Assembly (NCBI GenBank): GCA_050948785.1
Contig: JBMNEM010000002.1
Span: forward strand, 193,721 to 257,720
Source of the DNA: Dethiobacteria bacterium
Lineage (GTDB): Bacteria; Bacillota; Dethiobacteria; DTU022; UBA8154
Length of the DNA stretch: 64,000 nt
Direction of reading: 5' to 3'
The position numbers and the translations under genes were made by a program. The notes below the pieces were generated by a model. The model worked only from the letters and a program-made list of their open reading frames with translations, had not been told where the DNA came from and searched no databases. Shown piece after piece: positions 3,175-58,505 of the stretch. How positions within the stretch are numbered: the stretch's first letter is position 1; each line of letters begins with the position of its first letter.

Positions 3175-4818
3175 CTAGCCGAGCGCCGCTTTTTGCAGCA
3201 TTCGATAAACCATGGCGGCGATCTCCGCGCGGGTGATAGCTTCCTGCGGTTTAATTTGCAAAACCTCTGCAGAAAGTATCGCCTGCTGATAGCAAAAGGC
3301 CAAGGGCTCTCCGGCCCAGGCGGAACAAGAAGTATAATCGGGAAACTGCGCCAGCAGATCGCGAATTTCTGTGGCAGTGGGGGCCGTATGCAGGCCGCAA
3401 AGCCTTGCCGCCTGGGCAACCATTACCGCCGCCTGTTCACGGGTAATGGTGCCCCCCGGTGTAAAAGTAGTCTCCGAGGTGCCGTGCACGATCCCATAAG
3501 CATGGGCCGTTGCGACAGCATCTGCATACCAGCTCGTTGCAGCCACATCGGCAAAAACAGCACCCCCTGCCGGAGCAAGCCCCAGTGCCCGCACGACGAG
3601 TGCAGCAAACTCTGCCCGCGTCATGGTGCGTCCGGGCTCAAAGAAAAGGTCGCTGACCCCGCTGATTATACCGCGGGCCGCCAGCGCTTCAATAGCCGCC
3701 TGCTCTTTTAGCCCCTTGATATCTGCAAAGGTTTTACCGGGATTGCAAACCGGGCGGGCTGTCACTGCAGGATCCTTCCCGGGCAGCCCTGCTGCAGCTG
3801 CATTTTGTTCCACAGCAGAAACCTGCACATCGCTCATCTCATAAAAGCCGGTCTTCCCTTTGAGAAAACGATCATAAGCAACCAGGCCGCAAAAAGCCTG
3901 TTCCGTAGCCATAGCGTCCGGCTCCGACTGGGTCAGGATATGTTTGAAACCTCCCCCCGGCACAAAATAGTGCAGCAAATGATCGACAACAGTGTTGCCG
4001 TTCTTAATAAAACGGGCGTCGGCAACAGGATCAATGCCCAGTGCAGTCAGGGCAATAAGCACCTGCGTAACACCTTCCACATTGGCCGCCTCCCAGTAGC
4101 TGGTATAACTGCCATCGCTATTTTGAAGCCTGGAAAGGCAGGTAAGCGCCCGCTCGATCACCTTTTTAATTTCAGCCCGTTCCTGATAGGGTGCCAGTGC
4201 CTGCAGCGCCATCGCCGTAACATCCGCATCACCTGTCCTGCCGCCCAGCGAAAACCCCCCGTCAGCAAGCTGTAGTTCAGTAATAGCCCCGAGCAGCCGC
4301 TCACGCACAACCTGTATCTGCTCACCGGCATGGTCCGGAAAAACATGATGCCACGCATCGAAGGCCAACAGGGCAAAAAGGGGGCCGTTAATACCCTGCA
4401 GGAAGACGTTATCAAAGTCGCCCAGCCTGGCCAGCAGATCATATCCTCCCACATCCGCAGGATTTTTGCCGATAGCAGTCAGAGCTAAGATAGCGCGAGA
4501 GTATTCCGTATATTTATTACCAGGCAGAACGCCCTGATTTTTTACAATTTCATCTTCCAGGGACTGATAATACGCCGTATACCAGCCCGCCGGCACCTTA
4601 AGCCCGGACCGTGCCAGACCGATTAGCGCCCATTCACCGCCAACAGAACCAACCCGGGGACTTTGCACTTTTTTTAACAGATAAGCGCCGGTATCCTTTA
4701 GAGCCTTTTCCAGCGTAACCGGAGCCGCAGCAGCCGGTGCTGCCAAAACGGGAAAACTACTGCTAAGAAAGAGGCAAAGCGTCAGCAGAACTACCAAAAT
4801 ATTTTTAGCCCTGTTCAT
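3175..4818 (-). CDS. S-layer-homology (SLH) surface protein with prenyltransferase/squalene-cyclase-like alpha/alpha-barrel repeats
   Basis: Signal peptide (MNRAKNILVVLLTLCLFLSSSFPVLAAPA), repeated QxxDGGF/QNSDGSY-type alpha-barrel motifs, and C-terminal SLH repeats (FADIKG...AAIEALAARGIISG; FADVAATSWYADAV). Confidence 0.75.
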   Translation of the reverse strand: MNRAKNILVVLLTLCLFLSSSFPVLAAPAAAAPVTLEKALKDTGAYLLKKVQSPRVGSVGGEWALIGLARSGLKVPAGWYTAYYQSLEDEIVKNQGVLPGNKYTEYSRAILALTAIGKNPADVGGYDLLARLGDFDNVFLQGINGPLFALLAFDAWHHVFPDHAGEQIQVVRERLLGAITELQLADGGFSLGGRTGDADVTAMALQALAPYQERAEIKKVIERALTCLSRLQNSDGSYTSYWEAANVEGVTQVLIALTALGIDPVADARFIKNGNTVVDHLLHYFVPGGGFKHILTQSEPDAMATEQAFCGLVAYDRFLKGKTGFYEMSDVQVSAVEQNAAAAGLPGKDPAVTARPVCNPGKTFADIKGLKEQAAIEALAARGIISGVSDLFFEPGRTMTRAEFAALVVRALGLAPAGGAVFADVAATSWYADAVATAHAYGIVHGTSETTFTPGGTITREQAAVMVAQAARLCGLHTAPTATEIRDLLAQFPDYTSCSAWAGEPLAFCYQQAILSAEVLQIKPQEAITRAEIAAMVYRMLQKAALG

Positions 4819-4879
4819 TTAACCACCCTTTCAGAACATCCGACTTGTCATTTTCTTTTTTGAATCAACGTTCTCGCGC

Positions 4880-5032
4880 CTAGAGCTTGATCGACTGCGT
4901 CACCTTTTCCACCCTGACCGGCTGCCCTTCCTGCACCATGATTTTCAGCCTGCCAAAATCGGTGCTGCGTATAATTTCAATGACCTTTTTTTCCTTTGAG
5001 CTTAACCCCGTACCCGTTATCTGTTCATCCAT
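4880..5032 (-). CDS. Small DUF2292/YezD-like protein (50 aa), not in the ORF track
   Basis: Minus-strand ATG at 5032 preceded by GGAGGGAGG. It translates to MDEQITGTGLSSKEKKVIEIIRSTDFGRLKIMVQEGQPVRVEKVTQSIKL. It is a paralogue of the 5560-5716 product (shared ...GQPVRVE...SIKL) and lies between riboswitch 1 and the SLH gene. Confidence 0.55.
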   Translation of the reverse strand: MDEQITGTGLSSKEKKVIEIIRSTDFGRLKIMVQEGQPVRVEKVTQSIKL

Positions 5033-5244: not shown

Positions 5245-5435
5245 ATTCACATACACCTTTGCACGGAAGGCTTGTGGAAAACATTTACCGGGCAGGTCTC
5301 CTGGCTTGCAGCTCATCACTTGCTTTCACCTTCCCGAAGAGGCTCTCCAGTGGCATATAATGAAAGTAAATTCCCTGCTTACAGTGGCCGGACCACCCGG
5401 GATTTTCACCCGGTTCCCTTTCAACCCGATTTGGC
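5245..5435 (-). promoter_or_regulatory. Cobalamin (AdoCbl) riboswitch 1
   Basis: The reverse complement contains AAAGGGAACCGGGTGAAAATCCCGG ... GCCACTGTAAGC ... ATGCCACTGGAGAG ... GGGAAGGTGA ... AGCCAGGAGACCTGCC, i.e. the GGTGAAAATCC core plus the B12 box GCCACTG. It is upstream of DUF2292 gene 1 and the SLH/DUF4430/ECF operon. Confidence 0.8.
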
Positions 5436-5559
5436 ATCGGATCTACCCTGATAAAACCTTTATTCAATTTTTTAAATTAAACTTCAACCTTATTTAAAAA
5501 ACGGAAACACTATTCCAGTTTAAAATTGGAATAGCGCCTCCGTTGTTCGGTCAGCACCT

Positions 5560-5716
5560 TTAAAGCTTAATTGACTTTTTGATTTCTTCAACCCGTACAG
5601 GCTGCCGATCTTCTACCGCAATAACCATTTCACCATAACTGATTCCGCGCAGAATCCGGATAAACTTTCTTTCCCTGGGGGTTAATTCATCATTAAAGCC
5701 GTTATTCACTGTTTTG
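5560..5716 (-). CDS. Small DUF2292/YezD-like protein (about 52 aa; TTG start after AGAGAGGTG). The longer 5560-5811 ORF overlaps the riboswitch and is probably over-extended.
   Basis: C-terminal region ...FIRILRGISYGEMVIAVEDRQPVRVEEIKKSIKL is paralogous to the 4880-5032 product. Riboswitch 3 lies directly upstream. Confidence 0.5.
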
Positions 5717-5724
5717 CTTACAGC

Positions 5725-5905
5725 CAAGTTAAACACCTCTCTATTTCCCGTAGAGTTTCTGGTGCAAAAAACAGGCAGGCTTTCTGGCTTCGGGTCATCG
5801 CTCTCCCCCACCTTCCCGGTTTCCCAGTGGCATTCCGGGGGAAACTTCCCCTTTTACAGCGGCGGAACCGCGCGGGATTTTCACCCGCTTTCCTTTTACC
5901 GGCAT
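5725..5905 (-). promoter_or_regulatory. Cobalamin riboswitch 3
   Basis: The reverse complement contains GGTGAAAATCCCGCGCGGTTCCGCCGCTGTAAAAGGGGAAG...AATGCCACTGGGAAACCGGGAAGGTGG...AAGCCAGAAAGCCTGCC. No separate terminator is present, so control probably acts at translation. Confidence 0.75.
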
Positions 5906-6093
5906 GGACTATATTCCAGTGCATACTCCTGACCGGCACCTGTTTATGAAATAATCTTCAATTAAGAACATAATATCCCAACAGCCCCCTCTTGTCAATA
6001 ACCGGTTCTCCCCCATCTAAAAGCCTTTGGGGCTGCCCTTGTATTAAAGAGCAGCCCTTTAGCTGTGTCAGCATATCTGTATAGGCGGAAAAA

Positions 6094-9000
6094 CTACTCC
6101 AAGGGGGAAAGCCGGTAAAGCATCACCGCCGCCTGGGCACGGTTGGCATTTTGCAAGGGGGCAAAAGTGCCATCTCCCATGCCGGTTATAATCCCCTGAA
6201 TTGTGCAAAGGCCAACACCGTCTTTTGCCCACACTGCAATCTCATCCCTATCGCTGAAAATCCCCAGTTCCTGTGCAGCAGCTCCCTCAGATCCTTCCGG
6301 GCGGAGAACCCTGCCGATAATCGCAGCCATCTCCTGCCGGGTGATTGAACTTTCCGGATCGAATACCGTTGCGCTTCTGCCGCTGAGGATGCCATGATGG
6401 TATGCCCGGGCCACAGCTTCGTAATACCAGCTATTTACATGAACATCGGTAAAAGGCAGCTCCATCCCCGTATCATTGTAACCCAGCAAACGGGTAACCA
6501 AGGCGGCGAATTCTGCACGGGTAATCCGGGCACCGGGCTCAAAAACCCCTTCCCCCCGGCCGCTGATAATCCCCGCGGCGGAAAGTACCCCGATGGCCTC
6601 CCTGGCCCATTCATAGCCCTGCAAGTCGGTAAAAGGTATTTTAGTTTCTTTTTCCTGAGACTGCATGACAGTATAGAAGCTTAGGTGGTCTGTGAAGAAA
6701 GCAAATGTCTGCGTTTCCGGATCGTACTCCCCGCCCAGGCCGATAGGCACCAGAAGGCCCTCACCGTCATTTTCCAGTCGCACTCCTGTTAACCAGGCGC
6801 TTTGTTCCGGAGACAGCTTACCTAAGTGGGAAAAGTCTATAGTTATTTTTATCGGTTTGCTATATTTATCAAGTTCTTTTCCAGTGTTCCGCTCCTCCTG
6901 GGCGGTGTCAACCACCGTCAGGGTTATCTCATAAATCCCGCTTCCAACACCGACAAACCCGGCAGTTCCCTCCGGCACGTCTTTGGAAAGGATCTCCTGC
7001 TGTTTGTTGGCAGCGAGTTCCTGGACAAACACCTCTATCTGCGAATTATCGGCGGCGGTTAGCCGGGCAAATTCCTCGGTTAACAAAGCACCGCCGGCCA
7101 GTTCAACCTTAATACCCTTGTTTTCTAGCACGATCGCATGTTCTTCATTAACATTTTTAAGAAAATCCGGTGAAAAAAGCACTTTCCCGTCGGCCTTTTC
7201 CTCAAGGCTGAGCTTGGCTACGCCTGTTTGCTGCAGGTTTTCCTGCAAGGCCCGGTCATCAGCTGAAGAAGGTTGGAAGGTTTCCTTTGTTGCCCCCCCA
7301 CCGCCTCCTCCGCTACTACTCCATCCTTCCGAACCTTCCTCTTTTGTAAAATCATCAGTATAATAAAAAACCACGGCATCGCCTTGTTTCAACAAATATT
7401 CGTTTAGAGCCAGCGTAGTATGTTTACCATTGACCTTGTACATCCAACCACTAAGGGGGCCTTTGTCAAGTTCGTTAAGCCATTCCCCACTGGGCGCTTT
7501 GATGCCACTGACATAGCTGTCGTAAGACGCCCTGTATTCCATGCCTTTTTCAGATAGCACTTTGTCAAACATATCAAAGACCGTAGCCCCCTGCGGCATC
7601 TCCACACTGGTAGTTGGTATCCAGGTCTGCCCGCTATCACCGGTGAGTTTGAAGGTGACGGTAATATTACTTTCCTCGCTAGAGCCACCTGTACCTTCAT
7701 AGGTTACCGCTACGGTTGTATCTGCAGTTATGGTGAAGGTATATTTGTTATCCTCCAGGTCTGCTTTCTTGTCTTCACCGTTGACGGTAAAGGTGGCTAC
7801 CTGCTTGCCTGCCGGAGCTGTTACCGTTATCGTTACTGCAGTGTTCTCTTCAATTTCTCCAGCATCAGAAGTTGATGTTAATCCTTCGCCTGTTAAGGTT
7901 AAAGTGTAAGTAGCCGGTTCCGCTGTTTCGATCTTTAGTATAAACTCTTCGCTGGCAGCATCCCCCCCCAGGGCAGCAGCCCCGGCCTGGATGCTGATCT
8001 CGCCAACTGCAGCGGTACCTGTAAAAGCGACGGTCACCTTTTGAGCAGCGTCTTTGGTGATTTCCTCAACAGAAAGCCCGGTTTCTCCGGTATCAATTGT
8101 CCAGTTGTCCAGATCTTTTGTTTCTGCCGGATCTGCATATTCATCACCAACCAGGTTTATTTCAACCCGGGGATCTACCTCGCCGACGTCAATAACCGCT
8201 TCGCTAGAAAGTACAGGCCACCTGCTGTAGTAGAAGAACACCTCATCATTTTCTTGAACAATATAGTCGGCAGCACCAACGTCAGGGGAAACCCCGTTTA
8301 CTGTGTACGTCCAACCGTCCCAGCCGCCAAAAGCACCATTTTCCTCACCTGCAATAGAGTTGACCAAAATACCCCAATCAAAATACTGCAATTCATAGGG
8401 AATCCCCTTGGCATCCAAGCCCTGCTCCAGAACATCAAGGGCCGTCGGCTGATCGCCGGTGGTCAGCACTTCAACTTCTGCAGTAGGAAAAATTGTTTCC
8501 GTCTTTCCTTCCACCGTTAACTTCACAACTACCTTTTGGGGCTCGGCAAACTGTATCTGGCCCATTCTATGCCTTGTGGATTCACCATGTTTTAAATCTG
8601 CCAGGGCCAAAAGGGCCTGCACGGTGCTCATTTTTACCCCACCGGCAGTACCCTCTTTATACCAAAAACTGCCGTCCTCCTGCTGGTATTTTAGCAGGAC
8701 GTCAAGCACTGTTTGGCCATCTTTTACCCATCGCCCTTCCGGGTTCAGCACATCTTCTCCCACAGCAACTAATCCGGAGATAACTGCAGCGTTGGAATTA
8801 CAGTTTTCCTCTCCCCACATGCCCTCCAAAGCAAAACCGGCGTTGTCCTGCTGCTTACTATGCAGGAAGTCAATGGCTTTTCCAATTGCTTCCTGTGCAT
8901 TGGATTTTTTCTGGTGGTTGGATAAAGCCGTCAGCGCCCAGCCCGTATAGTCCAACTGGCTGAAGGCTCCAAAGCTGCCATCATCGTTTTGCTGGTTGAT

Positions 9001-9564
9001 CAGGTGCGTTATAGCCATCAGCTGACATTGAGTATTACCCCAGCCATCCACAACACCAAGTTCTTCGCCCACATCCAAAAGTACTATGGCCCAGATATGC
9101 TTTCCCAGGTCGCCAAATGCGCCGTCTGGTGGAATCTGGGGAGGACGCCGCTGCTGATCCGCCAGTTCTGCAAAAAGGTTCCTGCCGTTCCATATGTCGG
9201 CAGGGTTTTTCCCCACTGCCAGCAGCTTGAAAATGTAATAAATGTGCTCGTTTCCTGTTGTATTCGCTGCAAACCCGGGATCGTTCTCCCGCCACCCCTG
9301 GCCAGTCCCCCACGGTGCTTCATTTAAATCCTCACCAACGCCCCAAAGCGCCGGCAAACCTTCCCAGGAGTCGGGTGAAGGGTGGTTCGTTTGATACCAA
9401 GCGACTGCATTTGCTATCGATGCCTCCAAATCTGCTCCTGTTTCAACACCGCCACTGCCGGCCATAACAGGCAATGGACCTATTATAGAAAAGATCATGA
9501 ACAGGCTTAAAAAATATACCGGCCATTTTTTCAACACGCTTCGCTTTAATAACAACCTTAACAA
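6094..9564 (-). CDS. Large S-layer-anchored surface protein: signal peptide, prenyltransferase-like alpha-barrel domain, two DUF4430 domains, Ig-like/Thr-rich repeats, three C-terminal SLH domains
   Basis: 1156 aa. DUF4430 motifs GWTYTVNGVSPDVGAADYIVQENDEVFFYY and SGWMYKVNGKHTTLALNEYLLKQGDAVVFYY. SLH repeats at the C-terminus (FTDLQGYEWAREAIGVLSAAGIISG etc.). Preceded by riboswitch 2. Confidence 0.8.
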   Translation of the reverse strand: MLRLLLKRSVLKKWPVYFLSLFMIFSIIGPLPVMAGSGGVETGADLEASIANAVAWYQTNHPSPDSWEGLPALWGVGEDLNEAPWGTGQGWRENDPGFAANTTGNEHIYYIFKLLAVGKNPADIWNGRNLFAELADQQRRPPQIPPDGAFGDLGKHIWAIVLLDVGEELGVVDGWGNTQCQLMAITHLINQQNDDGSFGAFSQLDYTGWALTALSNHQKKSNAQEAIGKAIDFLHSKQQDNAGFALEGMWGEENCNSNAAVISGLVAVGEDVLNPEGRWVKDGQTVLDVLLKYQQEDGSFWYKEGTAGGVKMSTVQALLALADLKHGESTRHRMGQIQFAEPQKVVVKLTVEGKTETIFPTAEVEVLTTGDQPTALDVLEQGLDAKGIPYELQYFDWGILVNSIAGEENGAFGGWDGWTYTVNGVSPDVGAADYIVQENDEVFFYYSRWPVLSSEAVIDVGEVDPRVEINLVGDEYADPAETKDLDNWTIDTGETGLSVEEITKDAAQKVTVAFTGTAAVGEISIQAGAAALGGDAASEEFILKIETAEPATYTLTLTGEGLTSTSDAGEIEENTAVTITVTAPAGKQVATFTVNGEDKKADLEDNKYTFTITADTTVAVTYEGTGGSSEESNITVTFKLTGDSGQTWIPTTSVEMPQGATVFDMFDKVLSEKGMEYRASYDSYVSGIKAPSGEWLNELDKGPLSGWMYKVNGKHTTLALNEYLLKQGDAVVFYYTDDFTKEEGSEGWSSSGGGGGGATKETFQPSSADDRALQENLQQTGVAKLSLEEKADGKVLFSPDFLKNVNEEHAIVLENKGIKVELAGGALLTEEFARLTAADNSQIEVFVQELAANKQQEILSKDVPEGTAGFVGVGSGIYEITLTVVDTAQEERNTGKELDKYSKPIKITIDFSHLGKLSPEQSAWLTGVRLENDGEGLLVPIGLGGEYDPETQTFAFFTDHLSFYTVMQSQEKETKIPFTDLQGYEWAREAIGVLSAAGIISGRGEGVFEPGARITRAEFAALVTRLLGYNDTGMELPFTDVHVNSWYYEAVARAYHHGILSGRSATVFDPESSITRQEMAAIIGRVLRPEGSEGAAAQELGIFSDRDEIAVWAKDGVGLCTIQGIITGMGDGTFAPLQNANRAQAAVMLYRLSPLE

Positions 9565-9904: not shown

Positions 9905-10080
9905 CCAGACCTTTGCACGGAAGGCTTGTGAAGTATCGTCAAGGCAGGTTTCCTGGCTTGTGGCTCATCGTAGCTTTCACCTTCCCGGATAGCTCCAGTG
10001 GTATGCTGAAAGCTGCTCCCCACTTACAGTGGCCGGACCACCCGGGATTTGCACCCGGTTCCCTCTTCCACCCGCTCCTG
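9905..10080 (-). promoter_or_regulatory. Cobalamin riboswitch 2 (paralogue of riboswitch 1, about 85% identical)
   Basis: Same aptamer sequence as 5245-5435 (GGTGCAAATCCCGG ... GCCACTGTAAG ... GCCACTGGAGCTATCCGGGAAGGTGAAAGC). A terminator-like hairpin at 9820-9862 follows it on the minus strand. Confidence 0.8.
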
Positions 10081-10149
10081 TCAGCGGATCACCTTGACAA
10101 TGTTGTTTTAAATATTAATTTTAGAAGATACTTTTCAATTTTTCCATAA

Positions 10150-14400: not shown

Positions 14401-14857
14401 ATCGATGAGTGATTGCCCGGCCTCATCCAGGCGGAACAGGTAAAGTTTGGCGTGGTTGGGATCCAATGTTTTGCGGATATGCAGACGGCCCTCTTCCAGA
14501 AGATGCAAAAAGAAAGAAACCTGTCCATAAAATTCTTGCGTATCCAAGGCTTCATCTTGCAGCGCAGTGCGCAAAGAGGCAAAGAAGCGCCCCACAAGTT
14601 CCTGCTGGGTGCTGCCGGCTGCCTCTGGATCGGCCACCTCCAACACCCGGCCCAAACGCAGATCGGTATCCATCCCCACCAGAATTTTGAAGATGCAGGT
14701 CATCGCTGCGCCCCTTTAGCGCCTCATAAAGCTCCCGCCAGCCGGAAAAATAGAAGAAACCCACCAAAAATTTCAGTTCCCGGCTATGCTGGATGAGCGT
14801 ATGAATGCGGCCTTTAAGACTGCGTTGCCTGGCGTTGGTGATGAAATTTTTAGCCAT
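11428..14857 (-). CDS. PLD-family nuclease (HKD) fused to an SNF2/DEAD-like helicase; one apparent frameshift near 14700
   Basis: The N-terminal piece MAKNFITNARQ...LKFLVGFFYFSGWRELYEAL (14857-14700) continues in another frame as ...HAKLYLFRLD...GSSNLTRAGL (HKD motif). Helicase motifs I (DVVGLGKS), II (DEAH) and later motifs follow. The total is about 1140 aa. Confidence 0.7.
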
Positions 14858-17800
14858 TACGCCTCACGCTCCTTGCTTTGCTGATGCGCTCCCAGACTAA
14901 CTGGCAGACGGCCCGGTAAACTTCCTTCCGCTCCTCTTCAGTCAAGTCCAAAGCATCGAAGACAAGATCGTCCAGCGCCTTGCGATCGGGCAATGGATTG
15001 GGTTCCTGTTCGGCAATGGGGATCTTAGACTGAGGATCGATGCCGCATTCGGTAAAAATAGAAACAACTGGCCTTTGTTTTAATCGTAAAAGTATATCCT
15101 TAACCTGGTTTCCCCAATTAACTGCCAAGTTAGGTGACAAAACTAGTTGTTGCTTTACTTCGTAGACCATAAGACTCCTCGGCCCCCCACCTCCGCCATA
15201 CTGTCTTGCTTTTATTTCGTCAGCAAGAATTGAAACAACAGAATTTAATATAAGTTGAACAGACTGTGTTACAGTTGCCGCATATAGTCTGCAATCAGCC
15301 AACAAGGGTTTTGTTGAAGTGAAAACAGCGATCCTTTCCCTAAGTTCCTTTCCCCAAAAAACGTTTCCCATTTCATTAGGGACAGACCACCACCGTGGAC
15401 GGGAATTGCAAGTTGGTCGCTTAGAATACCCTTGTTTTTCTCCCCATTTAATATACGCCAAGGCCTTTGTACCCTTTAAATCTTTTTTGCTTTTATGGCA
15501 CATAAAGATACGGTATTTAAAATCATCCTGTTTGATCACGACACTGCGGCATTCGCGCGGGCTCTTGATAACCGGCTTTAAAAACTCTTCCTCGATTTCC
15601 CCTTCCCAGCCGGCACCGTTGCACACCCGCAACAGGCCCGGTTGTGAACCGGGGCCCAGCGGCTCCAGGTAGAAAAAGTCGTTTGCGCCGGTTTTTATAC
15701 CGAAACGCACTTCTGCAATCTCCCCCAAACGCACCAGCTTGTCCTTGCCCTTTTCCAGGATGGTGAAAAAGATATCCGGTGCACGCAGGTATTTGCCGCC
15801 CCATTTATCGCCTTTGTATTGGCCGGGGTCCTGGAGCCGGGATGAAACCTGGCCTGCATCGGAACCCTCCCGCAGCAGCTCGCCTGCTGTAACCGGCAAG
15901 ACGCGAAAACTTTCATCCCGTAATGCAGCCCCGGCCTCTTCAATGGCCAACAGGTTTTCGGAGAGCACCGCTTCCTCAAAAGGCTGTTTGAAAGCCACAA
16001 AGCGTGTCAGCTGGTTTTCATTTACCTTTGCAGGCGCACCGGCAACGGTGATAATCGTATTGATATCGGCACGGGTGAAGGAACGGCGGGCGTGATTGTC
16101 GATCACCAGGTGAAGCGGTGCCCGCCGCAGAAAAAACTCCTGCAGCCAGGAACCATAACCGACATCCAACCAGGAATTGGAACAGATGAAAACATGCACC
16201 CCCCCGGAATTAAGCAGACGCAGGGAGCGGATATAAAAATAAGTATAAAGATCGGAGCGGCCGCTTGGTTTGCGCCCCTTTCCGAACCGATCAGGTCGCG
16301 TTTGTGACAAAGCAAAATATTCGGGAAAATCAAGACGTACCATCTCCAGCAGGGCATCCTTATATTCCTTGGGGGTTAACAGCTCTTTGGGGTCGGTAAT
16401 ATTTTCCTGGCGCACATAAGGCGGGTTGCCGATGATGATGTCAAAACCTTCAGAGATCGAAGAAGATCTCGGCAAATTCGATGCTCCAGATGAAGGGACG
16501 CTTACTTTTCAGGCTTCTTTTCTGGGCCTGCAGTTCGGCAATTTCAGCTTCCAAAACGGCACACCGGACCGCTGCCTTTTTTGTAAGAACCGGTTCAGCT
16601 TGTTCCGGCCTTGTTTCTTTCATGCCAAGTTGTTTGGGCTTCAGACTTTGTATTTGCTTCCGGCGTGTATCAATTTCCGCCTCCAGGATATCCCGGAAAA
16701 CAGCCAGTTCTGCGTGCTCGATAAGGTGCGTAATCGTCGCTTTTGTTGTGGAAAATAATCACGCTTTCTTTGTTTAAGCCGGGTGACCCTGCGCTTGATT
16801 GCCGGCGGCAAATTGTCGTGGCCCTGCACGGGAAAGGTTTTGCCGCCAACGCGCTGCACCAGTGAATCGCCGGTGCGCACCTTGAAGGTTAAATTGGGCA
16901 GCAACGGCTCTTAACGAGCTTCGGTCTTCTTCAGGCATGTCCACAAAAAGGGTTAACCACAGGCGCAGTTGGTTAATCCACACCGCCCAGCGTTTGGTTT
17001 CCACACCGTAAAGGGAATGGGCGATGATGTCTTTTTTTCGCTTGAAGGGGGTAGGTTTCGCAGCCTTTAAATCCCCGGGGGTATTGTTGCGGGAATAGAG
17101 GTTTTCCAGCACCTGTTCCAGTACCTGCAGCATACCCACTTCAAAAGCCCCGGAGCCGGCCGCCGGGTCGCACACAGTGACCCCTTCCAGCTGTTCGATC
17201 AATGTTCGAATTTCAGCGGGGGAAAAGTCGCCCTGCTTCTGGTATTCGTCATAGGCCTCACCGGTGCCGGCTTCGCGGAAGAAAAGGCGGTAGTAGGTCT
17301 CTCTTTTCCGATTTCGGTAGTTTGCTCCAGCCATTTGACCAAGGCCAGGCGGCACATCAAATCCACTTCCACCCGCGGTGTATAGACTGCCCCCTGATCC
17401 ATATTTGTGATACGCTCGAAAATAATACCTAAAAATTCGGGATTTAGTTCTAATTCCTCATCATAGAGCTCATTTTCTTCCACTGTAAAGTTGTACTGGA
17501 AGAGGAAATCAAAAAAATCGTCGATGAGGTCATCGGGAACAAAGAGCCCCCGATCATCTACTGCCGGGCTTACGTTTAAACAGCTCCCCGTTCAGGTAAG
17601 GGCGCCATCCTGGAGCGCTTCTCGGGTCTCTGTAGAGAACGGTGCATTTCCATAAGCCACCTTACGCCCATATGGCGAACTAAGTGCCTCAAAAAAAAGG
17701 GGTTCCAACCATTCCCGGTAGAAAGTGCCGGCAGGGCCGGCCTGCCGGTACTCCTCCCAAAAGTCCTGCAGGAATTTAGTGTTGTCTGCCAGCCAGCCCT

Positions 17801-37588: not shown

Positions 37589-38338
37589 ATGCACCCTTTT
37601 CTCGCCGCTTTGGCCTTTTTGACCAAAATACCTGTTCCCGGGCAAAACAGAATTACACTGGACAACCTGGTGAGAAGTTCTGCTTATTTCCCCCTGGTAG
37701 GAGCAATACTGGGAGGAATTTTATGGCTTTTCTCCCAATTTTTAAATTACCTTTTTGGAGGTGCGGCCCTTCCTGCTGCAGCCCTACTCCTTACTTTATG
37801 GATATTTTTTACCGGGGCGCTGCACTTGGACGGTTTGGCGGATACCTTTGACGGCATGGCCGGGGGGACTACCAAGGAAGACCGCCTACGGATCATGAAA
37901 GACAGCTCCACGGGCTCCTTTGGCCTTGTTGCCGTGGTTTTAGTGTTACTGTTGAAATTCAGCTTTCTACAGCACCTACAGGGAGAGCGCCTTACTGCCG
38001 CTCTTCTTTATAGCCCTCTTTTGAGCCGTTGGTCGATGGTTCTCTTAATGTATTTTACCCCTTATGCCAAGAAAACAGCAAGCTTGGGGAAACCTTTTGT
38101 AGAACAAATAGGCAAAAAACAGCTGGCCATGGCCAGCGCCTTGACCATCGCCGCCGGCTTCCTTTACCCCATGACTTTTTTTCTAACCCTTTTGCTGCCC
38201 ATTCTTTTGCTTGTAGCCCTTTTCCGGCGATTTTTTCTGCAAAAAATTGACGGGATTACCGGAGACTGCTTAGGTGCGACCAATGAATTGCTGGAACTCG
38301 CCGTGCTTTTTCTCCTTCTGCTGCCCCATTCATACTAA
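37589..38338 (+). CDS. cobS: Adenosylcobinamide-GDP ribazoletransferase (cobalamin synthase)
   Basis: Signature motifs ...LTKIPVP... and ...GALHLDGLADTFDG.... 249 aa membrane protein. Confidence 0.85.
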   Translation: MHPFLAALAFLTKIPVPGQNRITLDNLVRSSAYFPLVGAILGGILWLFSQFLNYLFGGAALPAAALLLTLWIFFTGALHLDGLADTFDGMAGGTTKEDRLRIMKDSSTGSFGLVAVVLVLLLKFSFLQHLQGERLTAALLYSPLLSRWSMVLLMYFTPYAKKTASLGKPFVEQIGKKQLAMASALTIAAGFLYPMTFFLTLLLPILLLVALFRRFFLQKIDGITGDCLGATNELLELAVLFLLLLPHSY

Positions 38339-39261: not shown

Positions 39262-39670
39262 CTGCCACAAACACCCGCCACAAGGACCGTCCGAGACCAC
39301 TGAAAAACTATGTTTTTTTTATTTATCATTTTAAAACGAAATTGAGGAGTCTGATGTTTTCAATGGTTTAGGGATCCTTCGCTATTGCTCAGGATGACAA
39401 AAGGGACTTTTTCAGTGGTCTCGGACCGTCCCCGCGGTTGGTGCCCGCGGCTGGGTGCCCTTGGCTGGCCCACCACCGCCCCTTGACCGAATCGCCTGTC
39501 CTAATGCCGGGTAATGCCGCACCCGGCTGCGCCTCAGCCAATTAATGCCTGACCGCTCCTTGGGCTACCCAGTCTACCATGGGAATCCGCGGGATCACGG
39601 GAACCGTCCCTCCGGTTGCCGCGGCTACACCTGCCACAAGCACCGTCCCCGCGGTTGGCCCAAGCCCAAT
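39262..39670. repeat. Cluster of GC-rich 25-mer repeats (CCACAAGGACCGTCCCCGCGGTTGG and variants), including a 24-bp inverted repeat (39283-39306 against 39405-39430) that encloses an AT-rich ~100-nt loop
   Basis: GGACCGTCCGAGACCACTGAAAAA ... TTTTTCAGTGGTCTCGGACCGTCC. The same 25-mer family occurs at 42720-43000, 43780-43850, 44250-44330 and, in reverse orientation, at 58405-58505. Confidence 0.7.
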
Positions 39671-41648: not shown

Positions 41649-41773
41649 AAATAGTCCACTCCCACTTTTTCGTTATATTATAATATTCATCTTCCTTTAA
41701 AATAATGTATTTCTGATGGGGTATAATTTATCGTGGAAGGGACAATTTATTTTGTTTCAGGGTGGGAAAATAT

Positions 41774-42712
41774 ATGTCAAAGATTGCTATAGTCGGGGCC
41801 GGACTTGTCGGTTCAACAACAGCCTTTGCCTTGATGCTCGGAGGAACTGCGGAAGAAATTGTGCTTATCGATAAAATTAAGGAAAAAGCCCGGGGTGAAG
41901 CCCTGGATCTGAACCACGGCACCTCATTCATCCAACCTGTGACGATCTATGCCGGGGATTATCCGGACTGCCGCGGGGCCGATATTGTAATTATCACCGC
42001 CGGCATTCCCCAGAAGCCCGGCCAGTCACGCCTCGAACTGGTAGAGGCCAACAAGCGTATTATCCGGCAAGTTGTGGAAAGTATTCTAAATTACAACACG
42101 GAAGCTATTTTAATCCTCACCACTAACCCTGTTGATATCATGTCTTACGTTGCCTGGGAAGCTTCGGAGCTGCCAGCCTCCCGGGTGCTCGGTTCCGGGA
42201 CAGTTTTGGATACTTCCCGCTTCCGCTACCTTTTAGGCAGCCGCTGCAACCTGGACCCACGCAATATCCATGCTTATGTTATCGGCGAACACGGTGATTC
42301 AGAGGTACTCCTCTGGAGCACGGTAAATATCGCCGGAATACCAATGGAAAAATTTTGTGATACCTGTGAGCAAACATGCTCCCCGGAAGGTAAGGATGAT
42401 ATTTCACAACAAGTACGCCAGGCGGCTTATGAAGTTATTGAAGGAAAAGGAGCTACCTACTACGCTGTAGCATTGGCCCTGCGTAGGATTACGGAAAGTA
42501 TCCTGCGCAATGAACATTCCATTTTAACCGTTTCGACAATGATCGAAGAATTTCAGGGGGTAAAAGATGTTTACCTGAGCCTCCCCTGCATTTTAGGTGA
42601 AAACGGCGTGGAAAAAATAGTTTCCCTTGAAATGAGCAATGCAGAAAAAGAAAAGTTTTTAAAATCCGCCGAAATCGTAAAAAACTACACACACAACCAG
42701 CAACCAGTATAG
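41774..42712 (+). CDS. ldh: L-lactate dehydrogenase (NAD-dependent; an LDH-like MDH is not excluded)
   Basis: IAIVGAGLVGSTTAF Rossmann motif, active-site loop ...DLNHG..., catalytic VIGEHGDSEV. About 312 aa. Confidence 0.8.
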   Translation: MSKIAIVGAGLVGSTTAFALMLGGTAEEIVLIDKIKEKARGEALDLNHGTSFIQPVTIYAGDYPDCRGADIVIITAGIPQKPGQSRLELVEANKRIIRQVVESILNYNTEAILILTTNPVDIMSYVAWEASELPASRVLGSGTVLDTSRFRYLLGSRCNLDPRNIHAYVIGEHGDSEVLLWSTVNIAGIPMEKFCDTCEQTCSPEGKDDISQQVRQAAYEVIEGKGATYYAVALALRRITESILRNEHSILTVSTMIEEFQGVKDVYLSLPCILGENGVEKIVSLEMSNAEKEKFLKSAEIVKNYTHNQQPV

Positions 42713-42790
42713 CACCCCCGGAGCCCCGCGGTTGGTACCCGCGGCTGGTTCCCTCCGAGACCGTAGGATTTCCCCAAGATAAAAAAATAA

Positions 42791-42995
42791 CGGCAATGGT
42801 TTTAGCCATACCGTTAACCTATCCCATAAATTATTCCTAATGAGAGCCACCATTTCCGGCTCTCTTTTTCCTTCCACTATATACAGCAAGTTCAGCTTTC
42901 CCGTTTACCAGCCACAAGGTACGTCCCCGCGGTTGGTACACCACAAACACCCGCCACAAGGTACGTCCCCGCGGTTGGCCTGCCCGCGGTTGGCC
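42791..42995 (+). repeat. Composite repeat unit A (CCATACCGTTAA box, terminator-like hairpin GAGCC...GGCTCTC + T-run, then 2-3 GC-rich 25-mers)
   Basis: Unit shared with 43690-43850 and 44171-44330. Confidence 0.6.
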
Positions 42996-43214
42996 TTCGA
43001 ATCGCCCGTTACCCCCTTCCCTTTAAAGTTGACTGGTTGCCTATCTCCACATCTCGTAGAGATAGGCGGGAGAATGCCGCCGCGGCACACGGTTGATGCG
43101 GCAGCGCCGACAGGTTGGTCCAGGCCGGGATAGTATCTTTTTGAATTTTCATAACACTCAAGGAACGGGGAACAGATTGTGTTTTCTCTACCAGTGTGGT
43201 AAGATACCTTTGAG

Positions 43215-43420
43215 TTGCTGAATGCACAGCAACGAAATTGAATAGTGAAACGATGTGAGTGAATGGAAAGTGGGTGAAAGTCCCACACAGTCGCCGCTGC
43301 TGTAAGCATTACACGCGCTTATCATTATGCCACTGGAGAAATATTTACTCTGGGAAGGCGGTAAGTGTTAGATGCGAGTCAGAAGGCCGGCTCTCATCGG
43401 TTTGTCAGACCTTTCGGTGC
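43215..43420 (+). promoter_or_regulatory. Cobalamin riboswitch 4 (plus strand), orphan: no ORF downstream
   Basis: AATGGAAAGTGGGTGAAAGTCCCACACAGTCGCCGCTGCTGTAAGC ... TCATTATGCCACTGGAGAAATATTTACTCTGGGAAGGCGGTAAGTG...AGTCAGAAGGCCGGC parallels riboswitches 1-3 (GGTGAAA.TCC core, GCCACTGGAG...GGGAAGG). ORF 43259-43552 merely overlaps it. Confidence 0.65.
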
Positions 43421-43689
43421 AAAAGGACTGTCAGGATCAAGGTGTTCCCGTTTACCGGGAAGAGGCTTTTCGTAGCTACCAGGCGGAGGCTACAGGATAA
43501 TAACAATCCTGCTTTCTTTAAGCAAAAGAAGGTAGGATTTTTTTATCACTGATTTTCAGGAAAAGAAAGTTCGTATGGATGGCATACAGGAACTTTGATG
43601 AACAAGGCAGAGAATAATACGGTGTTAATGAAAATGGCAGCGGAGTATTGATAGAACATAGGATGACAAAAAGGAATAACAACATAATT

Positions 43690-43850
43690 TGACCATACCG
43701 TTAAACCCATATGGGAGCCACCTTACTGGCTCTCCTTTTTTTCCTGCCACTGTATACATGGCAGGTTCAGCACACACCAGCCACAAGGACCGTCCCCGCG
43801 GTTGGGACCGGAACCAGCCACAAGGACCGTCCGGGACCAGTGAAAAAGTC
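43690..43850 (+). repeat. Composite repeat unit B (best-preserved copy: GGGAGCCACCTTACTGGCTCTCC-T7 hairpin, CTGCCACTGTATACATGGCAGG hairpin, two 25-mers)
   Basis: See units A and C. Confidence 0.6.
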
Positions 43851-43949
43851 CCTATTAAATCACGTTAACACGTTAACACGTTAATAAGGGCAACCCCAAT
43901 CCAAAACCAAAAAAGGCTTTCCAAGCATTGTTTTTGTAGGTTTTTCAAC

Positions 43950-44012
43950 AAAAAACCCCCATAAATGGTATAATAGGTACGACCAAATACCGACCATTAG
44001 GGGGTTTTTTCA
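43950..44012. terminator. Bidirectional intrinsic terminator-like hairpin (A6-CCCCCATAAATGG...CCATTAGGGGG-T6)
   Basis: G/C-rich stem flanked by an A-run and a T-run. It lies between the plus-strand riboswitch region and the 3' end of the minus-strand V-ATPase operon. Confidence 0.4.
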
Positions 44013-44170
44013 TGCTTCGACTAGAGCCAAAGCAATTAAGTTTTCACTCATCATTATACAATAAAATTCCGGAAAATCATATACTAAAAAAGGTGGAATC
44101 AGTAGTGGACTTTAGTTTTATCAATGGTTTGTTAAAAAGATACCTATTGTAAAGAATTTGGGCGACCTGC

Positions 44171-44330
44171 ATAGCCCTGGCTATACCGTTAATTGCTTAT
44201 GAAACTACCATTTCCAGCTCTCTTTTTTCTGCCATTGCACCAACCACAAGCACCAGCCACAAGGACCGTCCCCGCGGTTGGGCACCAACCACAAGCACCA
44301 GCCACAAGCACCGTCCCCGCGGTTGAGGGG
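44171..44330 (+). repeat. Composite repeat unit C (degenerate hairpin, two 25-mers)
   Basis: CTATACCGTTAATTGC...CCATTTCCAGCTCTCTTTTTTCTGCC...AGCCACAAGGACCGTCCCCGCGGTTGGG...AGCCACAAGCACCGTCCCCGCGGTTGAG. Confidence 0.6.
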
Positions 44331-44359
44331 CGACTGCCACTGCACAGGTACATTTCCGC

Positions 44360-45004
44360 CTAAACTTTGGCCCGCACAATGTCTTTAATTTTCATCAACC
44401 TGGTCAGGGCAGCGCGCTCGCTTTCATCCAGTTTCATCGTAATATAGCGGACGGTCTCCTGCATTTTGGGAATCATAACATGCTCCAAGGCATTGACACG
44501 CCGGCGTGTCTTTTCAATTTCATCTGCCAAAAGCTGGACGGCCTTTTCCAGTTCGGCCAGCTCCATTAATTTCGGCATAATTCCCGCAAGGGTTTCAATG
44601 GAAGCATCTAAATCAGCAGAAGTGCCTACAAACCCGTAGGGGTAGATGTTGCTCTCCTCCCCCCGGGTACTCGCCTCCTGTTTCCAGGATAAACGCGGGG
44701 CATAAACACTCATAATGTTCTGCCTCTCTACCGTCAGAGAGATACGTGCCGTCGGGTACATCAGCGCTTCCTCCAGCACCTCTGTAGACATGACAGCGCG
44801 TGCCAGCAAAAACTTGGCCATGGCCGCTGTCAACTCTGTTTCAATTTGTTCACGCAGTTCCTTGTTTTTTCTCACCCGCTCTAAAAACTGGCGAACAAGT
44901 TCGTCGCGTTTATCCTTGAGTAGCTTATGTCCCCGCAGAGCCATATCCAGCCGTTTCTTGAGTTGGTTAAGTTCCATCCGCGTGGGGTTTACCCTGATTT
45001 CCAT
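44360..45004 (-). CDS. atpD: V-type ATP synthase subunit D
   Basis: 214 aa. MEIRVNPTRMELNQLKKRL...KLLKDKRDEL is the canonical V/A-ATPase D N-terminus. Confidence 0.85.
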   Translation of the reverse strand: MEIRVNPTRMELNQLKKRLDMALRGHKLLKDKRDELVRQFLERVRKNKELREQIETELTAAMAKFLLARAVMSTEVLEEALMYPTARISLTVERQNIMSVYAPRLSWKQEASTRGEESNIYPYGFVGTSADLDASIETLAGIMPKLMELAELEKAVQLLADEIEKTRRRVNALEHVMIPKMQETVRYITMKLDESERAALTRLMKIKDIVRAKV

Positions 45005-58404: not shown

Positions 58405-58505
58405 ATAACAATTTTTGCATCCCCGCGGGTGCAACCGCGGGGACGGTCCTTGTGGTTGGTCCTTGAGCCAGCCGGGCCAGCCGCGGGGACGGTCCTTGTG
58501 GTTGG
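58405..58505 (-). repeat. Two copies of the GC-rich 25-mer repeat in reverse orientation (CCAACCACAAGGACCGTCCCCGCGG...), intergenic between tsaC and larC
   Basis: Reverse complement of CCACAAGGACCGTCCCCGCGGTTG, present twice. Confidence 0.7.

Follow-up and report, generated by a model that had tools for sequence, protein, structure and literature searches.

In Listeria monocytogenes, a B12 riboswitch controls AspocR, an RNA transcribed antisense to pocR (Mellin et al. 2013, reviewed in PMC8079631). In its long form AspocR measures 1.4 kb and overlaps pocR, which encodes a regulator of B12-dependent pathways (PMC8079631). The small RNAs Rli55 of Listeria and EutX of Enterococcus are likewise controlled by a B12 riboswitch, and they act by sequestering EutV, an ANTAR regulator (Mellin et al. 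2014, reviewed in PMC8079631). The term 'orphan riboswitch' is used in the literature for a riboswitch of unknown ligand, and we found essentially nothing there under the phrases riboswitch relic or riboswitch pseudogene. Here we analyse a riboswitch that has lost its gene, in a 64-kb stretch of bacterial DNA (the window). A sequence-only reading of the window had seen in it either a relic whose cargo gene was deleted, a riboswitch-controlled small RNA or an AspocR-like antisense transcript.

Using cmscan, we obtained a full-length RF00174 match (model positions 1–189) at 43240–43409 on the plus strand, which scored 82.1 bits where the gathering cutoff is 31.5 (E = 1.1e-18), and a second Rfam search over 42700–44400 recovered the same match. 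The sequence-only reading, whose quoted motifs lie at 43271–43361, had called this the fourth B12 aptamer of the window, on the plus strand, and the call is borne out; the other three, at 5274, 5757 and 9926, are encoded on the minus strand. Its proviso that the copy might be a degenerate pseudo-aptamer scoring below threshold does not apply, as the score is above threshold and the aptamer is intact. The conserved core (B12 box, GCCACUG and GGGAAGG elements, P3–P6 junction) aligned with high posterior probability. The aptamer carries the B12 box AGUCAGAAGGCCGGCU, lacks the optional P2 hairpin, has the P6 extension and presents UCGCCG as L5. We take the element to be a class-I (AdoCbl-type) cobalamin riboswitch, a predicted B12 sensor. 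We also considered an origin as a paralog of the other three riboswitches of the window, which have the same aptamer–P13–terminator layout, and found that they are not the source of the 43240 copy. A likeness between 43590–43631 and the start of the DUF2292 ORF that follows the riboswitch at 5757 (score 26) was equalled by the best of 200 shuffles and was abandoned once homology to btuC emerged.

A metagenome pattern scan identified a locus (L050) with the same aptamer, P13 and terminator, 78% identical over 43284–43543, in which a 347-aa FecCD permease and then a 262-aa ABC ATPase follow 55 nt further on. Through this permease we reached five further homologous loci in related Bacillota (L051, L054, L057, L058 and L059); the relatives compared are all metagenome assemblies. 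In all five, an RF00174 riboswitch lies directly upstream of a FecCD–ATPase–(CbiK)–Peripla_BP_2 (BtuF-like) operon, and the alignment of all five leaders to the window extends from the promoter as far as codon 6, with promoter, aptamer, P13, terminator, ribosome-binding site (RBS) and start codon in common. The parts of the unit in the window are as follows.

43177–43205, plus strand: promoter of the riboswitch unit, with −35 TTGTGT (43177–43182), a 17-nt spacer, and TGg with −10 TAAGAT (43197–43205).
43240–43409, plus strand: cobalamin riboswitch aptamer (RF00174, 82.1 bits, full model), 72–84% identical to the five homologous aptamers.
43410–43426, plus strand: P13 hairpin, CCUUU-CGGUGCA-AAAGG, read directly from the sequence.
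43432–43437, plus strand: antiterminator strand CAGGAU, which pairs with AUCCUG (43506–43511) in the 5′ arm of the terminator; the pairing can take in the 3′ strand of P13 as well.
43505–43546, plus strand: intrinsic terminator, its stem of 15 bp closing a 5-nt loop and followed by a U-run (−18.1 kcal/mol).
43560–43598, plus strand: stub of the former cargo gene, RBS region GAAAAGAAAG and then ATG GAT GGC ATA CAG GAA CTT TGA (MDGIQEL*).

The stub ORF occupies 43575–43598, and its ATG and six codons align with the FecCD/BtuC N terminus MD[GS]IQ[EK]RKK.... The RBS, the ATG and MDGIQE match the N termini of ten FecCD/BtuC homologs, also at the DNA level. Homology with the relatives begins at about 43170, and homology with the cargo-bearing leaders ends at about 43593–43597; beyond 43597, identity to the five homologous loci drops to 25–39%, which is background. 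The block that survives begins just before the −35 and ends shortly beyond the start codon, a neat fit that is suggestive but subject to ascertainment bias.

We then asked what else the transcription unit might encode, and the search for a downstream ORF or operon failed: the 7-codon stub alone remains. The earlier claim that no gene follows, just repeats and hairpins up to atpD, holds in that no ORF with family support was found from 43410 to the atpD stop at 44360, but it passed over what is left of the former cargo gene (RBS, ATG and six codons), and an IS1182 relic is also present. Neither FecCD homologs nor cbi genes were found within the 64-kb window. The roughly 70 nt past the junction (43599–43667) had no match to operon 3′ ends, any relative's locus or the rest of the window; their likeness to a btuD start (MNKAENN... 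compared with the BtuD N termini MNETNN... and MNKKN...) was not significant. Two minus-strand ORFs of 54 and 55 aa lying across the region gave no family hits. A minus-strand ORF of 134 aa (42905–43309) was judged spurious because it runs antisense to the aptamer and includes the peptide PGLDQPVGAAA of the cbiD fragment described below.

The expression platform is conserved along with the aptamer. In alignments of the homologous leaders, the TTG and TG.TA...TA columns of the promoter are invariant among cargo-bearing homologs; a generic promoter scan gave no score for the 43177–43205 site. The L13 sequence CGGUG is complementary to CGCCG in L5, predicting a kissing loop, and complementarity of CGGUG to C(G/A)CCG holds in six of six homologs. 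Across the six, P13 is paired in 100% of cells, with one double change from C-G to U-A, and 97.8% of terminator cells are paired, with four pairs changed on both sides; P13 and terminator together give 98.3% of cells paired and five double-changed pairs. The antiterminator is 100% paired in the six homologs, and a G-C to A-U change in it is accompanied by a change of the corresponding terminator pair (three-way covariation). The predicted transcription-termination platform is therefore complete, with P13/L13, antiterminator and terminator all present.

In the ancestor, a sigma-70-type promoter would have driven a riboswitch acting through transcription termination. With B12 bound, the L5–L13 kissing loop would lock P13, leaving CAGGAU free, so that the 15-bp terminator could form and stop transcription at about 43545. 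In the absence of B12, CAGGAU and the 3′ strand of P13 would pair with the 5′ arm of the terminator, and polymerase would continue into an operon that encodes a FecCD permease (btuC), an ATPase (btuD), CbiK and a BtuF-like binding protein. We infer the same switching mechanism for the unit in the window. This unit is probably still transcribed, and the predicted RNAs are a terminated form of about 335 nt with B12 and a read-through form of about 535 nt without B12, which would end at the hairpin of the repeat unit RU2. That repeat is one of several pieces of debris that fill the space from ldh to atpD.

42795–42996, plus strand: repeat unit RU1, directly past the ldh stop (42712), with a CCATACCGTTAA box, a hairpin and tandem 42-nt ...CCACAAGGNACGTCCCCGCGGTTGG units.
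43079–43135, minus strand: fragment of cbiD (cobalt-precorrin-5B methyltransferase gene), 57 nt, with a 1-nt deletion inside.
43599–43667, no strand assigned: unassignable sequence of about 70 nt between the deletion junction and RU2.
43668–43835, plus strand: repeat unit RU2, with a hairpin at 43713–43734 followed by U7, −12.5 kcal/mol.
43945–44174, plus strand: IS1182-family relic, with a promoter-like site, a hairpin at 43950–44010 followed by U6 (−22.2 kcal/mol) and a transposase N terminus; truncated by RU3.
44176–44335, plus strand: repeat unit RU3, with a degenerate hairpin (−2.6 kcal/mol) and two 45-nt tandem units, abutting the atpD stop.
44360–45004, minus strand: atpD (V-type ATPase subunit D, PF01813), given as context outside the relic.

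The RU1 hairpin (GAGAGCC...GGCUCUC with a U-run, −12.0 kcal/mol) is likely the ldh terminator. The cbiD fragment is 84.6% identical over 52 nt to the cbiD gene of L054 (blastn, E = 5e-9) and 81% identical to that of L053, which is the same organism as L051, whose cbiD copy was included in the cbiD alignment. Its peptide PGLDQPVGAAA is identical at 11 of 11 positions to residues 114–124 of L054 CbiD (tblastn). These matches mark 43079–43135 as the remnant of the divergent cbi operon that is sited upstream of the riboswitch in relatives. In the upstream part, no remnant of the cbi operon's divergent riboswitch was found at E ≤ 1 in the Rfam search over 42700–44400, which at that cutoff returned RF00174 only, plus three far sub-threshold chance matches. 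RU2 has weak similarity to positions 12689–12732 of L054 (79.5% over 44 nt, E = 0.095), and the RU2-like element in this closest relative sits right past CN_hydrolase, the last gene of the homologous operon; RU2 may therefore represent the terminator of the deleted operon itself.

The transposase N terminus of the IS1182 relic begins at 44012–44152, as a 46-codon ORF, and continues after a frameshift to 44174 (...DTYCKEFGRPA*). The frame-corrected 53 aa are 62% identical to a Sporomusa termitida plasmid transposase (tblastn against plasmids, E = 1e-14), and many hits are annotated 'IS1182 family transposase'; neither the 46-aa ORF nor the frame-corrected 53 aa, an N-terminal fragment only, had a Pfam hit. 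The interval 43410–44360 thus holds the terminator of the unit, the unassignable stretch of about 70 nt, two repeat-unit copies and a frame-shifted IS1182 ORF. A strain variant (L002) carries an IS21 and restriction-modification island inserted at window position 43994, which, together with the IS1182 relic, identifies the region as a rearrangement hot spot. The 174-aa ORFs of L002 and L011 are unrelated.

Relatives show how the locus was once arranged. L054 and L011 are parts of the same contig, from the closest species-level relative (91% amino-acid identity in atpD), and there the homologous riboswitch is convergent with atpD, in the orientation seen in the window, at a distance of 10.1 kb as compared with 0.95 kb in the window. 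Another riboswitch adjoins atpD in L011; it has the opposite orientation and governs a second transporter, and was rejected as the ortholog. In a relative with 92% LDH identity (L061), ldh is followed by a convergent cbiC, and in L062 by a cbi operon; in other relatives (L013, L017–L019), the ldh–atpD spacer is about 60–575 bp and contains no riboswitch. The remnants in the window (ldh, cbiD fragment, riboswitch with btuC stub, RU terminator, atpD) are collinear with these layouts and have the same relative orientations. The debris is probably that of a B12 gene island formerly sited between ldh and the V-ATPase operon, which is convergent, with atpD as its last gene, as the sequence-only reading had stated.

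From the observed aptamer, platform, homology to cargo-bearing leaders, truncation point and collinear remnants, we conclude, with a probability of roughly 85%, that the element is the 5′ regulatory region (about 430 bp, 43170–43596) left orphaned when a cobalamin transporter operon was deleted, and that it regulates nothing. Of the three proposals of the sequence-only reading, the relic is the one that is strongly supported, since the leaders of five relatives drive btuC–btuD–(cbiK)–btuF and the window keeps the first btuC codons. We envisage a set of deletions, associated with the IS1182 element and the dispersed terminator-bearing repeat units, that would have removed the transporter operon from codon 7 on, the divergent cbi operon and all else up to the V-ATPase operon. 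The absence of function is inferred.

The unit shows no sign of excess decay. Of 130 columns without variation among the five cargo-bearing homologs, the window departs at 4; for the homologs themselves the count is 4–22. Lineage-specific aptamer substitutions number six in the window, compared with five in L051 and nine in L054, and two functional homologs have lower covariance-model scores (69.4 and 74.8 bits) than the 82.1 bits of the window. This missing decay could mean that the unit has been retained by selection, and a promoter, aptamer, kissing loop, antiterminator and terminator without excess substitutions would suit a stand-alone small RNA under B12 control, comparable to Rli55/EutX; its long form, ending at about 43745, would act in trans and be shortened by B12. 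The second terminator-like hairpin (43713–43734) would yield a discrete long form, and the arrangement is fixed in every sampled same-species contig. However, the RBS and codons 2–6, now useless, are preserved equally well as the aptamer, which favours recent loss over selection as the explanation, and the same-species contigs (L001–L010) are 99–99.9% identical across the spacer and are therefore uninformative on ancestry or selection. The read-through segment (43597–43745) has no homolog in relatives, contains neither an ANTAR element nor any other Rfam element at E ≤ 1, and has an unremarkable folding energy (z = −1.7). We therefore regard exaptation as a small RNA as improbable, and recent loss of the operon as probable. 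Convergence with atpD, whose stop lies 815 nt from the riboswitch terminator, had raised the further idea of AspocR-like antisense transcription or transcriptional interference, in which read-through without B12 would enter atpD on the opposite strand. This is disfavoured by the two further terminator-like hairpins with U-runs that intervene, those of RU2 (−12.5 kcal/mol) and the IS1182 end (−22.2 kcal/mol), and by a convergent geometry that was inherited from an ancestor with about 10 kb of genes between riboswitch and atpD. The layout of riboswitch and antisense target also failed a conservation test, as relatives have either those 10 kb in between (L054/L011) or an ldh that abuts atpD without a riboswitch (L013, L017–L019). 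None of the present results indicates a functional link between B12 and the V-ATPase, and we give this idea very little credence.

The IS relics and repeat units that flank the segment would also fit a partial duplicate, a 430-bp leader copied by IS- or repeat-mediated recombination while the true riboswitch–btuCD operon sits elsewhere in a genome of which 64 kb are visible. Against such a copy, the remnants are collinear with the layout of relatives and all in the same relative orientation. In addition, the only JGI entries among BtuC homologs at 67–100% identity are P0002 (96% to L050, that organism's own species) and P0015 (69%), although at least 10 JGI metagenomes contain the species of the window in abundance. 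A duplicate is accordingly very unlikely, if a shade less so than antisense control. Retention of the RBS and ATG at 43560–43577, and a second ATG at 43598, might point to a micro-ORF as the regulated gene, the candidates being the 7-codon MDGIQEL stub and an overlapping ORF of 17 codons, MNKAENNTVLMKMAAEY; but the former is the BtuC N terminus cut by the deletion and the latter has no homolog, leaving this notion next to no probability. Co-option of the unit in any form as a free-standing B12 sensor, whether as a small RNA of about 535 nt repressed by B12 or as a B12-gated convergent transcript interfering with the 3′ end of the V-ATPase operon, has a slim chance of being correct. If true, it would capture the birth of an Rli55- or AspocR-type regulator from a decapitated operon leader.

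Comparative genomics thus explains an orphan riboswitch that resembled an antisense or small-RNA candidate as what is left of a deleted operon for B12 uptake. For annotation, high-scoring riboswitch matches that regulate nothing are to be expected. A complete promoter–aptamer–terminator leftover that is apparently expressible could serve as raw material for the evolution of Rli55/EutX- or AspocR-type RNAs. The locus probably records a recent loss of a cbi/btu island in a Dethiobacteria-like lineage. This lineage retains riboswitch-controlled surface proteins with SLH and DUF4430 domains, plus cobS.

Compared with RF00174 AdoCbl-type riboswitches upstream of btuFCD-type transporters, the window copy has the same full model, B12 box, L5/L13 and antiterminator/terminator alternatives, but it is without cargo, its operon ending past btuC codon 6–7. 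Like AspocR, it combines a B12 riboswitch and premature termination with an opposite-strand gene ahead and no ORF of its own; unlike AspocR, it has two further terminator-like hairpins and 815 nt ahead of atpD, a gene that the present results do not tie to B12, and its layout was produced by deletion and is absent from relatives. With Rli55/EutX it has in common a stand-alone unit of riboswitch and terminator, with a short form in B12 and a long form without it (both predicted for the window), whereas its long form has no ANTAR-binding dual hairpin or other recognisable element and its read-through is not conserved. It also resembles gene remnants of IS- or repeat-associated deletion, as in ordinary pseudogenisation, given the truncated ORF stub, the 57-nt cbiD fragment, the frame-shifted IS1182 relic and the IS21/restriction-modification hot spot; what differs from such remnants is that the survivor in the window is a complete, undecayed regulatory RNA unit.

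The orphan plus-strand cobalamin riboswitch proposed by the sequence-only reading is real. An Rfam scan of the whole window found four cobalamin riboswitch aptamers, and the only part missing from the plus-strand copy is the optional P2 hairpin; the motifs cited for it earlier map to 43271-43361. We consider the observation confirmed because the RF00174 match covers the full model, an ORF and family search found no ORF with family support from 43410 to 44360, and the V-ATPase operon beyond is convergent. Here we call the plus-strand leader at about 43170-43596, which lacks a cargo gene, the relic. It lies in a 1.65-kb spacer between ldh and atpD.

Features of the ldh-atpD spacer
41762-42712, plus: ldh (Ldh_1_N/Ldh_1_C), upstream of the riboswitch
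42795-42996: repeat unit RU1
43079-43135: 57-nt piece of cbiD, upstream of the riboswitch, in the expected orientation
43177-43182 and 43197-43205, plus: conserved promoter (-35 TTGTGT; TGg + TAAGAT), from alignment with five homologs
43240-43409, plus: cobalamin aptamer (RF00174, model positions 1-189), 82.1 bits vs gathering score 31.5
43410-43426, plus: P13 hairpin CCUUU-CGGUGCA-AAAGG, right after the aptamer
between P13 and the terminator, plus: two small hairpins
43505-43546, plus: terminator, 15-bp stem-loop then U-run, -18.1 kcal/mol (0/200 shuffles as stable)
43668-43835: repeat unit RU2
43713-43734, plus: RU2 hairpin plus U7, -12.5 kcal/mol
43950-44010, plus: IS1182-end hairpin plus U6, -22.2 kcal/mol
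44176-44335: repeat unit RU3
44360: end of atpD, last gene of the convergent V-ATPase operon, downstream of the riboswitch

The aptamer has an unusual B12-box variant, and a pattern scan of metagenome contigs for it hit only one, L050, the end of which is 78% identical to window 43284-43543 through the aptamer, P13 hairpin and terminator. In L050, ATGGACAGCATCCTGGAA..., 55 nt past the terminator, is the start of a 347-aa FecCD (BtuC-type) permease, followed by a 262-aa ABC ATPase. After a homologous ribosome-binding-site region, the window reads ATG GAT GGC ATA CAG GAA CTT TGA (43575-43598). This stub is the start codon plus six codons of an L050-type permease gene, and the similarity ends there. 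Searching with the L050 permease protein and looking up where its homologs are encoded gave six further loci (L051, from the L050 organism, L054, L057, L058, L059 and L060), all with an RF00174 match directly upstream of FecCD-ABC ATPase-(CbiK)-Peripla_BP_2; a CN_hydrolase gene follows in L051 and L054. Five of the six (not L060) align with the window unbroken from promoter through aptamer, P13, terminator and ribosome-binding site to codon 6. The homologous permeases begin MD[GS]IQ[EK]RKK..., and the window has MDGIQE and then breaks. The aptamer is 72-84% identical to those of the homologs and the platform (P13 to terminator) 56-76%; after 43597 identity drops to 25-39%, equal to background. 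The gene that normally follows this riboswitch in relatives, which the sequence-only reading had asked for, is thus a FecCD (BtuC-type) permease. Its suggestion of a relic with deleted cargo is upheld, as the relatives' leaders drive this transporter operon and the window stops at btuC codon 6. We conclude that the relic is what remains of a deleted btuCD-cbiK-btuF operon, its control region at the 5' end still intact.

The control region retains its switching elements. Across six homologs, 98.3% of cells in P13 and the terminator are paired, and both members have changed in five pairs; this value was not attained by any shuffle, and slid controls scored 46-66%. In each of the six, L13 (CGGUG) complements L5 (C(G/A)CCG). 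Immediately past P13, a CAGGAU or CAAGAU strand can pair with the terminator 5' arm (AUCCUG or AUCUUG) and changes together with the matching terminator pair, a three-way covariation for which the statistics are weak (six sequences, probably a single evolutionary event; 29/500 shuffles). As in a standard switch, bound B12 would favour an L5-L13 kissing loop that locks P13, allowing the terminator to form and transcription to stop; without B12, the P13 3' strand and CAGGAU would sequester the terminator 5' arm and transcription would continue. The window copy has every one of these parts intact, and its sole terminator change (43533 C>U) converts a G-C pair to G-U.

Synteny indicates how the cargo was lost. 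An AtpD scan with one genome per species yielded Bacillota/Dethiobacteria-like MAGs at 80-91% identity. In L013, L017, L018 and L019, ldh is the convergent neighbour of atpD (spacer about 60-575 bp), and the spacer has no cobalamin riboswitch. The closest relative (L011, AtpD 91%) has other genes at this site, as well as a different B12 riboswitch that runs the opposite way and precedes a BtuF-FecCD-ATPase transporter. L011 and L054 belong to one contig, JAAZMP010000009.1, on which the homologous riboswitch (end 27087, plus) and atpD (stop 37179, minus) converge at a distance of 10.1 kb; the window has the same orientation at a distance of 0.95 kb. Within the 10.1 kb lie btuC, btuD, cbiK, btuF-like and CN_hydrolase genes, a MarR and a PIN-domain gene, and a second, convergent transporter that has a riboswitch of its own. 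In L051, L058 and L059 the riboswitch stands back to back with a cbi (corrin ring synthesis) operon that likewise has its own riboswitch; L054 has the divergent cbi operon too, separated from the riboswitch by two small ORFs (207 and 92 aa). In L061 (LDH 92% identity) a convergent cbiC 3' end lies 108 nt past ldh, and in L062 a few inserted genes separate ldh from cbiC and the remainder of the cbi operon.

Back-to-back riboswitch pairs in relatives, about 110-140 nt apart, the partner controlling the cbi operon
L051: 7370-7537 (minus) and 7646-7813 (plus)
L058: 4389-4554 (minus) and 4673-4839 (plus)
L059: 4359-4525 (minus) and 4663-4829 (plus)

Remnants of this arrangement persist in the window. 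The cbiD piece is 84.6% identical over 52 nt to L054 cbiD (E 5e-9), and its translation, PGLDQPVGAAA, is identical at 11/11 residues; the RU2 hairpin region weakly resembles the terminator after the operon's last gene in L054 (79.5% over 44 nt, E 0.095). The window order of ldh, cbiD fragment, promoter-riboswitch-btuC stub, RU terminator and atpD is thus collinear with the relatives' B12 island of cbi operon, two divergent riboswitches and btu operon. Judged by gene order, the window appears to have lost nearly all of this island in situ, through at least three deletions and no transposition. Around the relic lie leftovers (cbiD fragment, IS1182 relic, repeat units) of a B12 gene island once located between ldh and the V-ATPase operon.

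The IS1182 relic contains a 46-codon ORF (44012-44152, between RU2 and RU3) that Pfam did not detect; its frameshift-corrected reading (...DTYCKEFGRPA) matches IS1182-family transposase N-termini at 62% identity (E 1e-14). Between RU2 and this relic, CACGTTAA occurs in three perfect tandem copies (43861-43884) overlapping HpaI-like GTTAAC sites. RU1-RU3 share one design: a CCATACCGTTAA box, a GAGAGCC/GGCUCUC hairpin followed by a U-run, and tandem units of 42-45 nt that end in GTCCCCGCGGTTGG. The GTCCCCGCGGTTGG core occurs 13 times in the window, in four intergenic regions, vs 0.5 expected by chance. More broadly, tandem 37-45-nt units ending in GTCCCCGCGGTTGG, often joined to the CCATACCGTTAA box and terminator hairpin, form a dispersed intergenic family (39428-39658, 42722-42996, 43776-43835, 44237-44326 and 58431-58490) that may be a terminator-carrying REP/MITE-like element. 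Related copies follow CN_hydrolase in L054 and possibly, by eye only, ldh in L061; the 3' end of the window's ldh ORF (…NYTHNQQPV) also seems, by eye, to enter repeat-like sequence.

Within the species, 23 metagenome contigs encode identical AtpD, and those spanning the spacer match the window at 99-99.9% identity, riboswitch included. The variant L002 departs from the window exactly at 43994, inside the IS1182 relic, and has no riboswitch within 10 kb. In L002 (10645-20645; JGI 3300065951) the sequence upstream of this point is swapped for IS21 (IstA/IstB) and an island encoding a type III restriction-modification system and a helicase. This makes the spacer a rearrangement hot spot, and a group II intron D1-D4 fragment in the L019 spacer (6843-7015; RF02001, 156 bits) is further evidence that it attracts insertions across the clade.

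Of 130 columns that do not vary among the five cargo-bearing homologs, the relic departs from 4; when each homolog is left out in the same way, it departs from 4-22.

Polarised lineage-specific changes
Aptamer: window 6, L051 5, L054 9
Platform: window 7 (3/7 in alignment-gap columns), L051 6, L054 3
Leader plus stub: window 5, L051 3, L054 2

From these two measures, the relic does not show accelerated decay. Selection may have kept the relic RNA, a matter on which the near-clonal population data are uninformative. The now useless ribosome-binding site and codons 2-6 are nevertheless still near the family consensus, so that recent cargo loss, as read from the sequence, would be the simplest explanation.

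Elsewhere in the window, cobS (cobalamin-5-phosphate synthase) is kept 5 kb upstream (37589-38338, plus), and no FecCD transporter or other FecCD homolog, and no cbi ring-synthesis gene, was found within the 64 kb. This combination, seen in one window only, is consistent with a shift toward salvage. The other three aptamers are on the minus strand. Two are in tandem, about 290 nt apart, each with its own terminator and then a small ORF; the second ORF matches DUF2292 and the first is similar-looking with no Pfam match. Large SLH-domain surface proteins with DUF4430 domains come next, and a 1156-aa SLH + DUF4430 protein is encoded after the riboswitch at 9926-10111. The set resembles cell-surface B12-capture proteins under riboswitch control. 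A protein with an Eco57I-type restriction-modification methylase domain (14850-16475, minus) is unrelated to the riboswitch.

Minus-strand riboswitches and accompanying ORFs
5274-5465, 5757-5958 and 9926-10111, minus: cobalamin riboswitch aptamers (Rfam scan)
5561-5727, 4880-5032, 3175-4818 and 2302-3144: ORFs that go with the tandem riboswitches
6094-9564: the 1156-aa protein ORF

The sequence-only reading had also offered a riboswitch-controlled small RNA and a B12-gated antisense transcript running into the V-ATPase operon, and neither gained support. The read-through segment, 43597-43745, lacks homologs in relatives, folds unremarkably (z -1.7) and gives nothing in Rfam at E<=1 beyond far sub-threshold noise, and so has no ANTAR element. 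An antisense transcript would meet the RU2 hairpin and then the more stable IS1182-end hairpin before reaching atpD; the convergent geometry that suggested it is a by-product of the deletion. We regard co-option of the orphaned unit as a stand-alone B12-responsive RNA as very improbable. In Listeria, the antisense RNA to pocR, AspocR, is 1.4 kb long and B12-repressed, and Rli55 sequesters EutV through an ANTAR site (both reviewed in PMC8079631); the window riboswitch shows neither of these hallmarks. The riboswitch family itself is well known, and what is new here is the cargo-less copy.
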